Shown here: positions 4,181-11,975 of the stretch, piece after piece
How positions within the stretch are numbered: position 1 is the first letter of the stretch
Layout of the letters: every line of letters begins with the position of its first letter
Origin: Octopus vulgaris
Taxonomy: Eukaryota
Length of the DNA: 64,000 nt
Direction of reading: 5' to 3'
Assembly: GCA_951406725.2 (NCBI GenBank)
Contig: OX597825.1
Span: forward strand, 25,048,001-25,112,000
The notes under the pieces: model-generated
The model's database searches: none
What the model was told of the DNA's origin: nothing
Seen by the model: only the letters and a program-made list of their open reading frames with translations
Translations under genes and position numbers: made by a program

Positions 4181-6686
4181 ATATATAGATAGATAGATAC
4201 AGGCATACTTCCGCCACAAATATTGGAAACATAAAATCATTAAAAAAACGTTAAAAGCACATAAAATCATGTTACTGTACAATAAATAAGAATAAAAGCG
4301 TATAAAATCATAGTAATATACATGTTAAGATACACACCATAAAGTAGTGTAGCTTAGTGAACGAAATCCAGAAATGCATTCATAAATAAAGTACAGAACT
4401 GGGAATGGTTATTATTGGTTCAGACAAGAGACAAGTAAATTCGATTTAAGCCGTGTTTCCTGGACCCAATTAATGATGTAGGGTGAGGTATGTCTGTATA
4501 TATACATCAGTGGCGAAGGGTAACTAGGAAACTAGGGAATGCAGTCCAGCCAGCCACACACAAATACACTGAGGTTTGTTGGGGAGCGGTGGGTTCCGAG
4601 TGTTCCACCCCTCCCCCGTTTTCCATGAGAAGTGTAGTATTATATGCTTTGAGATATATCATCATCATCATCATCGTTTAACATCCGCTTTCCATGCTAG
4701 CATGGGTTGGACGGTTCACCTGGGGTCTGGGAAGCCCGAAGGCTGCAGCAGGCCAGTCAGATCTGGCAGTGTTTCTACAGCTGGATGCCCTTCCTAACGC
4801 CAACCACTCCGTGAGTGTAGTGGGTGCTTTTTATGTGACACTGACACAGGTGCCAGACGAGGCTGGCGAACGGCCACGCTTGGATGGTGTTTTTTTTTAT
4901 GTGCCACGGGCACAGGTGCCAGACGAGGCTGGCAAACAGCCACGCTCGGATGGTGTTTTTTACGTGCCACCAGCACGGAGGCCAGGCGATGCGGTACTGG
5001 CTACGGCCACGTTCGGATGGTTTTCTTATGTGCCACCGGCACTGGTACCACAAAACTACAAATTCCATTGATGTTCATCGATTTTGATTTGATTTGATTT
5101 TGGAATCTGAAAATGAAAATAGTTTCCCCTCACTACAATGCACTATTTTGAAGTAATTAGTAACACACGAGAAATGTCCATACAAGCGTTTCCAAAATAT
5201 ATACAGGAATTCCGGGATTAGTGCGCAAAAAAGTTCTGAGACTGCCCCTTAATATAAGCGATGTCAAATTTGATTAGGTTGTTTCAATAAGTGTTTGTCT
5301 ACTTTTTCTGCACAATCCCTTTGAAGCATTAGCAGCACCTCATCTTCAGTTGCACACCAATCTTTCACGCATGAGGTCTGAGGTCATGTGCCACACCTAC
5401 CAGTGCTTAACTAGCATATTCAAAATAAATCGACAAAACTTCTTGAAATTCCACCAAAAGTCAAATGGCTCTCTTTACTCTTCTACTTGCTTCAGTCATT
5501 TGACTGTGGCCATGCTGGAGCACCGCCTTTAGTTGAATCAAATCGACCCCAGGACTTATTCTTTGTAAGCCTAGTACTTATTCTATCGGTCTCTTTTGCC
5601 GAAACACTAAGTTACGGGGACCTAAGCACACCAGCATCAGTTGTCAAGCAATGTTGGGGGGACAAACACAGATACACAATATACACACACACACATATAA
5701 ACATATATACGACGGGCTTCTTTCAGTTTCCATTTACCAAATCCACTCACAAGGCTTTGGTGGATCCGAGGCTATAGTAGAAGACACTTGCCCAAGGTGC
5801 CACGCAGTGGGACTGAACCCGGAACCACGTGGTTGGTAAGCAAGCCATTTACCACACAGCTGGAAATACTCCCACTTCTAATATCGTAGCCATATTGAAG
5901 TGGCGAGCTTGCAGATTTGATAGCAAGTCAGATGTGACGCTTTGCAGTATTTCATCCGTACTTACGCTCTCAGTTCAAATTCTGCCAGGGTTGACTTTGC
6001 CTTTCATCTGTTCAGGATCTATAAATTAAGTACCAGTCAAGCACTGGGGTCGATGTAATCGACTAGACCCATTCCCCCAAAATTTCAACCTTTGTGGCTG
6101 CATAGGAAAGGAATATTGTAGTCCTATTGAACCATGCCTATTTTTAAAGAACATTGCATATAGAAACGAAATCAGAAAACAATATTCCAAAATACGATGT
6201 GTATTTTTCAGTGGAGTCTAGCATGGCAAAGCTGATTTTAAGAAGGAGCATCAGTCAGATCATCCTAATTTTTCTTGCATTTTATAATTATAACTTTTTT
6301 CTAAAACAAAACAGCACTCCACGAATTTTGGGGGGGTTTTTACTGCTTCCTTGATTTTTTAATAGTATTTTATGTCTCATAAATATACAAGCTAAAGTGA
6401 ATTTTGTCCCGTTTCTTAATTACAAAAAAAACAATAGGTGCATTTTTTAAAGAATTTTATTTATTTGTGCCAGTTTTTAAGTATGCTTGGCCATAACTGA
6501 AAAACCAACATTTAGCCAGGAACTTTTCAGCACTGCCTCATATGTGTGTATATATGATGATGATGATATTTACAAGTATGTATGCACATGCATGTTTAGT
6601 TTTTGTACCTGTACATCTGTGTAGTGTAGGAAAAGACTGTTAGTCTGTATGGTCTCAACTATTTTCACATGCTTTCCCTCATACAC

Positions 6687-7390
6687 ATCATCATCATCAT
6701 TTAACGTCCGCTTTCCATGCTAGCATGGGTTGGACGGTTCAACTGGGGTCTGGGGAGCCCGAAGGCTGCACCAGTCCAGTCAGATCTGGCAGTGTTTCTA
6801 CAGCTGGATGCCCTTCCTAACGCCAACCACTCCGAGAGTGTAGTGGGTGATTTTATGTGCCACCGACACAGGTGCCAGACGAGGCTGGCAGACGGCCACG
6901 CTCGGATGGTGTTTTTTATGTGCCACCGACACAGGTGCCAGACGAGGCTGGCAGACGGCCACGCTCGAATGGTGTTTTTATGTGCCACCGACACAGGTGC
7001 CAGATGAGGCTGGCAAACGGCCACGATCGGATGGTGTTTGTTACGTGCCCACAGCACGGAGGCCAGTCGATGCGGTACTGGCTACGGCCACGTTCGGATG
7101 GTTTTCTTGTGTGCCACGTGCCACTGGCACTGGTACCACAAAGATACAAATTCCATTGATGTTCATCTATTTTGATTTGTTTTGATTTTCACTTGCCTCA
7201 TCAGGTCTTCACAAGTGTCACAAGAAGGAAGGTAAGCACAGGTGGACTGACTACGTCCCAGGTAGGGGCCACGGTACTGGCTATGGCCACGTTCGGATGG
7301 TTTCCTTGTGTCCCACCGGCACTGGTACCACAAAGATACAAATTCCATTAATGTTCATCTATTTTGATTTGTTTTGATTTGATTTGATAT
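6687..7390 (-). mobile_element. RTE 3'-UTR-derived repeat (representative; others start near 75(+), 715, 3547, 4659, 12700, 13430(+), 19929, 25330, 31167, 33058, 34766, 35466, 51158, 62594, 63640(+))
   Basis: Shares (cat)n-cgtttaacgtccgctttccatgctagcatgggttggacg... with the 3' end of the RTE at 22839; variable number of ~60-bp internal repeats. Confidence 0.85.
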
Positions 7391-9399: not shown

Positions 9400-9970
9400 A
9401 TATATTTTATTTCTACATACTTGAGAAGAGTGAATACTAAAAACTCATTATATGGACATAAAATAAGAACTATGATTCCTTACAAGGTTGCATGTTTAGC
9501 AAGCTATGTAACAAGTAGACACTAGCATTTATTTTATTGTATCTGGGGTGAGCCTTTCTGTTTTAATGTCTTATTAATTAACACACTCACCAGTTCGATT
9601 TCCACTCATTTACTTATTTATTTAAAAAAATTTTTTTTTCCTTGCAACTTCTTCAATAGTCGTTGACTCTGTCCATTATCAGAGCTGCATTCATTTTGTT
9701 TTTTTGTGCACATGTGTGTGCATCAGTGTGCATGTGTATACACATATGCATGTATGTATGTATTGTATGTATGCATATATATATATATGTATGTGTGTAT
9801 ATATATATTATATATATATATATATAAACTATTTATAAGTAAGGGCAAAAAAAAAAGTTCCTAATGCCAAAATATGCTGAAAATAGACATAACGTCAATA
9901 ACCATGTAATTTATCACTACAAGCATGTGTTTCGAAGACAGCCAACAGAAACTTCTAAAAAATCCCGTTA

Positions 9971-10031
9971 TTACCATATCGGACCCAATTTCAGAGTTAG
10001 TTCATAAGAACCTTCCCTTCATCAGTGATAA
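9971..10031 (-). ncRNA. Type I hammerhead ribozyme motif (inverted twin of 10267-10327)
   Basis: Reverse complement of 10267-10327; lies on the SLC35A4 sense strand. Confidence 0.75.
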
Positions 10032-10266
10032 ATGCGGCAAAGAAATAAGTGAAATACTTACTTATACCCACGGAAGAAGCGAGCACTAAGTCATGAGTAC
10101 AATTAAGTACCCCAAATATATCCAAAATAGAAACTCTCTAGCCCATCTCGAGACACGTGTGATTCAAACTGAAAAACTCTCGTAAAGTGAGAGAGTCCGG
10201 AAGTGAACACTATTAAATTAACATCCGTGGGTATAAGTAAGTATTTCACTTATTTCTTTGCTGCAT

Positions 10267-10327
10267 TTATCACTGATGAAGGGAAGGTTCTTATGAACTA
10301 ACTCTGAAATTGGGTCCGATATGGTAA
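10267..10327 (+). ncRNA. Type I hammerhead ribozyme motif
   Basis: UUAUCA-CUGAUGA-AGGG aag GUUC uuau GAAC uaa CUCU-GAAA-UUGGGUCCG-AUA^UGGUAA. Stem I 6 bp; self-complementary stem III AUUGGGUCCGAU; AUA site after 10321. Confidence 0.75.
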
Positions 10328-10942
10328 TAACAGGATGTTTTGGAAGTTTCTGTTGGCTTTCTTCGAAACACATGCTTGTAGTGATAAATTACATGGTTAT
10401 TGATGTTGTGTCTATTTTTGGCATATTTTGGCATTAGAAATTTTTTCTTTTGCCCTTACTTATAAATTGTTTATAAATTTAACCTTTAAAGGTACTTTTT
10501 AATATGCTGGCCATTGAGAGAATTTTTTTCGAAAAATTTTATCCTACATTTGATGTTAATTTAATAGTGTTCACTTCCAGACTCTCTCACTTTACGAGTG
10601 TTTAAGAAGAGTACCTAGCCATAGAAACCATGCCAAGGCAGACATTGGAGCATGATGTAGTCCTTGAATTGGTCAGATTCTGTTGAACTGTCCAACCCAT
10701 GCCAGCATGGAAGATGGATGTTGAAAGATGATGCCGATGATTTAACATACTTCATACACTGAGTTCTAATTCTCCAATTTATGCCCCCAAACCTATACCC
10801 ACCAAAGTGACCCCTCCCCCACTACAAGGCACACATGTACACACACAATCATGCACACATACACAGGTGCGTGTATGTATATGCGTGCACACACACACAC
10901 ACACACACTGGCACAAACACAGAGGCCAGAAACACTGATTAC

Positions 10943-11429: not shown

Positions 11430-11975
11430 ATGTATATTATATATATTCAATAATGAGGGTGAATAAAATTATAGATATTAATTCAATAATACCCTTATTT
11501 TAACACCAAGCGACCTAGCACAATAAACCGGGGATACAAATTCATATTTATCCGTAAATATAAGAGAGCCAACTTTGAATATGTTAACTCTAGTGCTAGA
11601 AATAGCTCCACCGGTAGTCGCCAACGATAATTCCACATAGAAATAGCACTTTTCGGCGGGGAATTCGTAACTACAACCCTGAATGTAATTGACCAGACCA
11701 CATGGTTAATCGTCGCCTGTATCGGTCTGATTAATTATATTGACAAATGTTGCTGACGAATCATAGACAATTATGTAAGTATAATCTGCATATTTTGTTA
11801 ATGAGGAAACAATTGTACAACATTAATCCATTATTTGGTTGTATTTCAATTTCATAGCGTTGATTGTAGTGCTATTTCTATGTGGAATTATCGTTGGCGA
11901 CTACCGGTGGAGCTATTTCTAGCACTAGAGTTAACATATTCAAAGTTGGCTCTCTTATATTTACGGATATATTAT
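11430..11975. mobile_element. Fold-back Penelope/retrozyme-like element
   Basis: 102-bp inverted arms 11549-11650 and 11868-11969, a hammerhead between them, and TA-rich flanks. Outer limits approximate. Confidence 0.7.
11746..11824 (+). ncRNA. Type I hammerhead ribozyme motif with extended stem II
   Basis: AAUGUUG-CUGACGA-[46-nt hairpin: UCAU/AUGA, GACAA/UUGUU, UAUGUA/UGCAUA]-GAAA-CAAUU-GUA^CAACAUU. Perfect 7-bp stem I; palindromic stem III ACAAUUGU. Confidence 0.82.

Follow-up and report, generated by a model that had tools for sequence, protein, structure and literature searches.

A hammerhead-bearing 479-nt non-coding unit of the retrozyme type, probably derived from a Penelope-like element, inserted in Octopus vulgaris as head-to-head arms with two fixed ends

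How did a short inverted structure in the Octopus vulgaris genome come to carry two hammerheads on opposite strands, within arms that read as arcs of a single circle? The window, by which we mean the whole 64-kb stretch of DNA that was analysed, contains an inverted arm pair of 258 nt (9817-10074 and 10224-10481; 94% identity, 15 mismatches) and a second one of 52 nt (10174-10225 and 10552-10603; 96% identity, 2 mismatches). Comparison of the inverted arms gave the segment order B-D-A on the minus strand and A-C-B on the plus strand, exactly as the original prediction had read it. The junction had been described as an overlap of a few nucleotides, which holds at 2 nt, whereas the start of B had been placed at 10226 and lies at 10225. 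The left arm is a standard arm that ends in (TA)n at E1, one of the two fixed ends (E1 and E2) described below (Table 1). The right arm meets a foreign repeat, which we take to be SINE-like, through a short motif common to both; its original right end was probably lost by a later deletion, so that the arm is now fused to this neighbouring repeat. The GTAAGT upstream of the hammerhead resembles a splice donor in sequence.

Table 1. Features of the inverted insertion and its surroundings, in positions of the window.
Feature	Position	Strand	Remarks
(TA)n-rich microsatellite target, E1 side	9770..9816	.	read from sequence
Left arm B-D-A, 0.86 unit	9817..10225	-	5' end cut off at the junction; 3' end is the fixed site E1 (L001 1094-1502)
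Second, identical hammerhead, left arm	9971..10031	-	core at 10025
Segment D	10075..10178	-	left arm only; links B and A without a break in other copies
Head-to-head junction	10224..10225	.	2-nt overlap of the two 5'-truncated arms
Right arm A-C-B, 0.79 unit	10224..10603	+	passes E1 and E2; stops at unit position 52, a non-standard end
GTAAGT upstream of the hammerhead	10237..10242	+	GTGAGT in the third relative (L233)
Type I hammerhead, right arm	10267..10327	+	helix I UUAUCA/UGGUAA, core CUGAUGA, extended helix II, GAAA, self-complementary helix III; predicted cut after A10321
Fixed end E1, end of segment A	10466..10481	+	internal in the right arm
Segment C, 'tail' from E1 to E2, ~80 nt	10476..10556	+	
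3' half of another abundant repeat	10599..10745	+	fused to the right arm

The hammerhead that had been predicted in segment A is present there, with the CUGAUGA core at 10273-10279, GAAA at 10306-10309 and an AUA triplet before the predicted cut. A type I descriptor matched exactly twice in the 64 kb, once per arm. Rfam yielded no match at the gathering threshold and, at E<=10, three chance-level matches, none of them to a hammerhead family; the 81-nt hammerhead folded alone formed helices II and III, with a stability not beyond that of shuffles (z -0.57). Across 40 of the 59 distinct hammerhead segments, the proposed structure was paired in 96% of cells, compared to 29-46% in slid controls. 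Between the 479-nt family and a sister family, each of four helical segments carries a two-sided change, to be counted as about four events and not as 55 independent ones. The core and three helices with covariation that characterize a type I hammerhead were thus found, a third relative also keeps the fold, and in the two relatives compensatory changes have preserved the hammerhead. The self-complementary helix III was computed to be more stable as a duplex between two molecules than as a hairpin, which is what hammerheads acting as dimers would lead one to expect; cleavage is predicted to occur, probably, only as a dimer on multimeric transcripts.

The hammerhead had also been noted to be identical in both arms while their flanks differ. 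This is correct for the window, where none of the 15 mismatches falls within its 62 nt (p = 0.014), but not as a general property: in ten other insertions, repeated copies differed at 28 of 615 sites inside the hammerhead and at 159 of 2725 outside (p = 0.24). On this comparison outside the window, we set aside selection on the hammerhead after insertion as unsupported. Family-wide variation is lower in the hammerhead (83 of 2836 versus 746 of 16678 non-CpG sites, p = 1e-4), which more likely reflects selection among source lineages.

We then asked whether the four segments form a circle, as had been proposed. Mapping of the cycle junctions with the four segments on 30 loci established a 479-nt cyclic unit A-C-B-D with a natural period of 474-479 nt, and natural single-strand copies read C-B-D-A-C. 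Rather than being linear copies lacking D-A or C-B-D continuity, copies elsewhere carry all of D-A, A-C, C-B and B-D on single strands (for example L013, L015, L016, L019 and L017). One arm (L002:1466-1990) passes straight from segment D to the E1 end, which suggests an internal skip or deletion. In the assembly (2.8 Gb, 227 contigs), a first look gave 3482 candidates for A-C-B and 1753 for B-D, figures that are lower-bound indicators and not copy numbers, and the copies are dispersed over many chromosomes. The unit is non-coding, with a GC content below 50% and a type I hammerhead in each unit; at 479 nt and repeating on itself, it is too short for an RT plus GIY-YIG open reading frame, and no examined copy ran into coding sequence. 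Inverted arms within one insertion differ by 6.2% compared to 8.6% between loci, which is why we assign both arms to one source lineage. Non-majority variants are shared at 1.5% of sites within an insertion and at 0.5% between loci, and six of them are common to both window arms.

To describe how copies end, we collected 120 loci with four queries (30 of 40 scored candidates each). These comprised 90 distinct insertions (30 loci being duplicates of the same insertion), of which 89 were kept after leaving out L007, an apparent segmental duplicate of L003. The loci are best-scoring matches and not a random sample; their lengths are biased, while the end of the partner arm was not selected by the query. 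Of 147 arms, 67 end at E1, 63 at E2 (~80 nt from E1) and 17 elsewhere, so that 130 have a fixed end, and (TA)4 lies within -12 to +25 nt of 114 of these 130 ends (raw count); a target of this kind would mask any target-site duplication. The 5' ends are scattered: two of 147 fall within 11 nt of the predicted cut, with ~3 expected if they were uniform. Head-to-head junctions occur in 54 of the 89 insertions and a tail-to-tail junction in one. Among the 42 insertions in which both ends are fixed, 41 combine E1 with E2 and a single one combines E1 with E1 (L197; p = 2e-11), a pairing that we did not find quantified in the literature searched. By their BLAST edges, the 54 head-to-head junctions divide into overlaps of 1-5 nt (30), longer overlaps (2), blunt joints (5) and gaps (17). 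In 28 of the 41 E1+E2 pairs one arm lies within the other, and in 13 neither contains the other; the 5' ends are at most 12 nt apart in 10 of 41 pairs (stratified permutation mean 4.8, p = 0.01). As a separate observation, one insertion consists of the tail only, running from E1 to E2 between TA runs (L243:3057-3145).

This anatomy comprises the features of derivatives of Penelope-like retrotransposons (Penelope-like elements, PLEs), namely fixed 3' ends with an optional tail and variable 5' truncation (130 of 147 arms), an inverted 5'-truncated head-to-head copy with a tail at one end only, an AT-rich or microsatellite target and a partial tandem arrangement (31 of 147 arms exceed one unit). 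In conclusion, the locus is one insertion of a high-copy, non-autonomous and non-coding PLE derivative of the retrozyme type. It is a known kind of insertion from a new family, and the pasting rule is unusually clear in its copies. We found no description of the 479-nt family in the literature searched, with Repbase, Dfam and paper supplements lying outside that search; the supplements of PMC4209133 and PMC8557442 may list the family or a relative.

What kind of template was copied? The original prediction named a circular or tandem RNA, and several observations support it: 94 of 147 arms cross the cleavage site, 31 of 147 exceed one unit (a share enriched by the query), and tandem units are no more diverged than inverted arms (6.7% for direct repeats and 7.5% for inverted arms in the 18 loci with both, p = 0.16). 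Repeated passage over the cleavage site is seen in five of the 147 arms (two or three times each), in further arms found with a 2.7-unit query and in the L233 relative; the window locus itself has its two hammerheads on opposite strands and no same-strand tandem. A hammerhead-cut linear monomer copied once was rejected as the sole template, given the arms that cross the cut and the lack of a pile-up of 5' ends there. Arm lengths reach 1.93 units and once 2.7, and the 2.7-unit query gave no array longer than itself among the best 40 of 4387 candidates. With that query a hard upper limit to arm length proved unsupported. The longest arms hinted at transcription starting around unit position 120-140, a reading that we rejected as query bias. 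For each of the 23 long arms, the divergence between its tandem units is smaller than that to the median outside copy; 10 of the 23 arms have units that resemble each other more than they do any of ~100 outside copies. Tandem units therefore seem to be made anew from a single unit during, or close to, each insertion event. A circle is consistent with this, as is end-to-end template jumping; gene conversion or young, homogeneous dimer sources are a possible alternative. A circular RNA is a plausible template, and so is a linear multimer. The end-to-start joint of the unit also exists in genomic DNA, and the circular fold was better than shuffles in one of two copies (z -4.8 and -1.7).

With a probability of about 0.72, we interpret the locus as a non-autonomous PLE insertion mobilised in trans by a PLE RT and GIY-YIG endonuclease. 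This explanation draws together the cyclic unit, the two fixed 3' ends, the variable 5' ends, the (TA)n target, the head-to-head E1+E2 arms and the shared source variants. A PLE RT-endonuclease, probably a dimer, would act in trans and nick both strands in (TA)n. Each nick would prime cDNA on an RNA of more than unit length, with one start at E1 and one at E2; the two cDNAs would break off at variable points, and short microhomology would join the truncated ends into an inverted pair. In the window copy, the later deletion would then have taken the right end and fused the arm to the neighbouring repeat. What the enzyme does, its dimeric form and its paired use of one RNA are our inference, and the anatomy of the insertions is all that points to a partner enzyme. 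LINE-1 twin priming is a related process, in which two cDNAs from two nicks are joined by microhomology into a 5' inversion; LINE-1 arms do not overlap and their second start is variable, whereas the 479-nt family has two fixed starts and broadly overlapping arms. A PLE protein has been described that cuts and extends both strands, has two RT start sites bounding the tail and is a predicted dimer (PMC11167929, in the part concerned with this activity), and the same source reports hammerhead cleavage to be dispensable in vitro.

The strand switch of the original prediction survives as one of two mechanisms, with two separate primings favoured by the near-exclusive E1+E2 pairing and by the 13 non-nested pairs. 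In the single-priming version, which we regard as rather unlikely, a non-autonomous PLE would be primed once, its inverted arm would come from a subsequent strand switch or fold-back, and endonuclease cleavage at the opposite boundary of the tail would fix the second end; this version resembles both the first idea about the locus and the self-priming model put forward by Arkhipova et al. 2013. The 10 pairs with near-coincident 5' ends fit fold-back synthesis as well as a shared stop, and the 28 nested pairs also speak for a single priming, although nesting is partly expected from geometry alone. Likewise, text in PMC3846280 proposes self-priming for head-to-head repeats, and PMC8557442, where it treats the tail, attributes it to endonuclease-mediated resolution. 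However, in the 13 pairs whose arms each hold sequence absent from the other, the palindrome would have to have lost its centre in a later deletion, and the window arms are non-nested too, unless the right arm was once ~800 nt long. Against our preferred explanation as a whole, in turn, stands the tail of ~80 nt here compared to 30-40 nt in the literature, together with the exceptions to E1+E2, namely the E1+E1 insertion and, by eye, one E2+E2 insertion in the sister family (L137).

The copies might instead be truncated pLTR stubs of an autonomous PLE and not a self-propagating non-coding lineage. This we consider very unlikely: most short insertions do resemble pLTR stubs, and the search for autonomous elements covered the top-scoring GIY-YIG matches of 6136 and 21932 candidates, but arms that extend upstream enter another copy of the unit (to 1.9 units, once 2.7) and not a coding region, and three relatives (77% identity and beyond) keep a non-coding period of 470-495 nt. 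Inverted duplications with microhomology can arise at the DNA level, but an event of this type, in which repair or template switching during replication would have inverted a satellite unit without any RNA stage, is barely credible here, being contradicted by the fixed-end statistics and at odds with the dispersal over many chromosomes, the fixed 3' and ragged 5' ends, the (TA)n targeting, the E1+E2 pairing, the covarying ribozyme and the lack of long arrays among the best 40 matches to the 2.7-unit query.

As for a partner enzyme, the assembly holds PLEs with RT plus GIY-YIG, long open frames and (TA)n flanks. One young family of 781 aa has 456-nt pLTRs that are 99.3% identical and TA flanks; on a zinc-finger-like motif of the kind described in PMC8557442, we label it as putative Neptune. 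This family was rejected as the parent, its pLTR being unrelated to the 479-nt unit. Around GIY-YIG matches we searched 83 stretches, some of which overlap and which represent a small share of the 6136 candidates; none contained an autonomous PLE with a homologous pLTR, and matches to the unit near GIY-YIG loci are separate inserts in TA runs. Apart from this search, two copies of the young autonomous PLE family (L091:906-4587 and L096:1081-4781) show an extra upstream frame that overlaps the 781-aa RT-endonuclease frame, is 479 aa long in L096 and has no Pfam match above the cut-off; canonical PLEs are described with a single ORF in the relevant part of PMC8557442. An autonomous pLTR (L091:5570-5610) carries by eye a hammerhead with a U3-A8 core variant, which the type I descriptor did not report and which is among the variants described in PMC4209133.

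How does the 479-nt family compare with known systems? According to the sections of PMC8557442 on insertion structure, PLEs insert at TA targets as partial tandems, with a 5'-truncated copy in inverted orientation and a tail at a single end, and they give rise to non-autonomous derivatives. Endonuclease-bearing PLEs (Penelope/Poseidon, Neptune, Naiad) are alike in partial tandems, 5' truncation, the inverted head-to-head copy, the one-end tail, AT-rich or (TA)n targets and a hammerhead upstream of the 3' ends, as far as the relevant accounts in PMC8557442, PMC3846280 and PMC11167929 go. The 479-nt unit differs from them in having no coding region and repeating on itself, in the longer tail and in the lack of a homologous autonomous pLTR in the 83 stretches. 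Non-autonomous Chlamys elements such as MRC1, in the account of PMC8557442, are alike as PLE derivatives with pLTRs and head-to-tail multicopy insertions.

Animal retrozymes are defined in PMC7229834, which names PLEs as likely mobilisers, and bioRxiv 10.64898/2026.07.22.740005 argues, in the portion bearing on this, that retrozymes are non-autonomous PLE derivatives, mainly in vertebrates. Animal non-LTR retrozymes as portrayed there share with our family a low-GC non-coding unit, a type I hammerhead, a range from monomers to short tandems and a proposed PLE origin or mobilisation. The unit of 479 nt is slightly above the 150-450 bp given in PMC7229834 and within the 51-972 bp of bioRxiv 10.64898/2026.07.22.740005. 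In contrast to retrozymes, the 479-nt copies are dispersed, mostly below two units and without long arrays, are known here from genomic copies and not from circular RNA, and carry a hammerhead whose long helix II and palindromic helix III, by eye, match the PLE type. PLE minimal hammerheads, as presented in part of PMC4209133, are alike in the type I fold, the long helix II and the palindromic helix III suited to dimers. That source also describes hammerheads paired across the two strands at distances of 100-700 bp and suggests that copies exceeding one unit come from circular templates; the pair in the window lies 296 bp apart on opposite strands. The 479-nt family differs by A10.1-U11.1 in place of the conserved G-C, which its relatives have, and by a helix III of 5 bp. 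Taken together, the element is not an autonomous PLE; as regards the anatomical features tested, it has those of a non-autonomous PLE as well as those of a retrozyme unit.

The family has relatives in the same assembly. The sister family mentioned above is ~77% identical (L092:5534-5991 and L123-L147; 2774 first-look candidates) and has the same unit, ends and inversions, with nine E1+E2 pairs and one E2+E2 pair (L137) by eye; its L092 copy adjoins an autonomous PLE end within one TA run. A third relative (L233, minus strand 5877-6776) has a 495-nt unit present as 1.8 units that are 99.3% identical, and its alignment score is 124 compared to 44 for the best of 30 shuffles. This copy is young, lies between (TA)n runs and ends at the homologue of E1. 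Elsewhere in the window, a second, unrelated inverted insertion (11546-11972) has 105-nt arms of 99% identity and a hammerhead-like motif with the core CTGACGA near 11720 on the plus strand, with GTAAGT in its helix II. This element gave 585 first-look candidates, often as inverted pairs, and probably represents one more family of the non-autonomous PLE type. Several other, distinct type I hammerhead families, in part arranged as inverted pairs, lie near GIY-YIG loci (L064, L068, L069, L082, L095, L109, L236, L239 and L246), and the assembly seems rich in hammerhead elements.

Building upon the interpretation as a non-autonomous PLE insertion, we tentatively suggest a more specific, possible scenario, in which a long-lived lineage of ribozyme-made circles would be copied by a dimeric PLE enzyme that starts on the same circle at both tail boundaries and rolls past the ligation point, yielding one E1 arm and one E2 arm with fresh identical tandem units. 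The structure itself is ordinary for PLEs, and its value is that of a test bed. Both the origin of the inverted ends and tails of PLEs and the role of retrozyme circles as templates are raised as open questions in passages of PMC8557442, PMC7229834 and bioRxiv 10.64898/2026.07.22.740005. Since the unit is short, non-coding and high in copy number, with its two ends fixed, E1+E2 pairing can be counted in it; it also offers arms of more than unit length and tandem units no older than the insertion itself. A 479-nt RNA is also an easy substrate for the in-vitro PLE assay described in PMC11167929. If paired priming on a ribozyme-made circle is true, these copies would provide direct genomic evidence for the proposed link between retrozymes and PLEs and for obligatory paired priming in PLEs.
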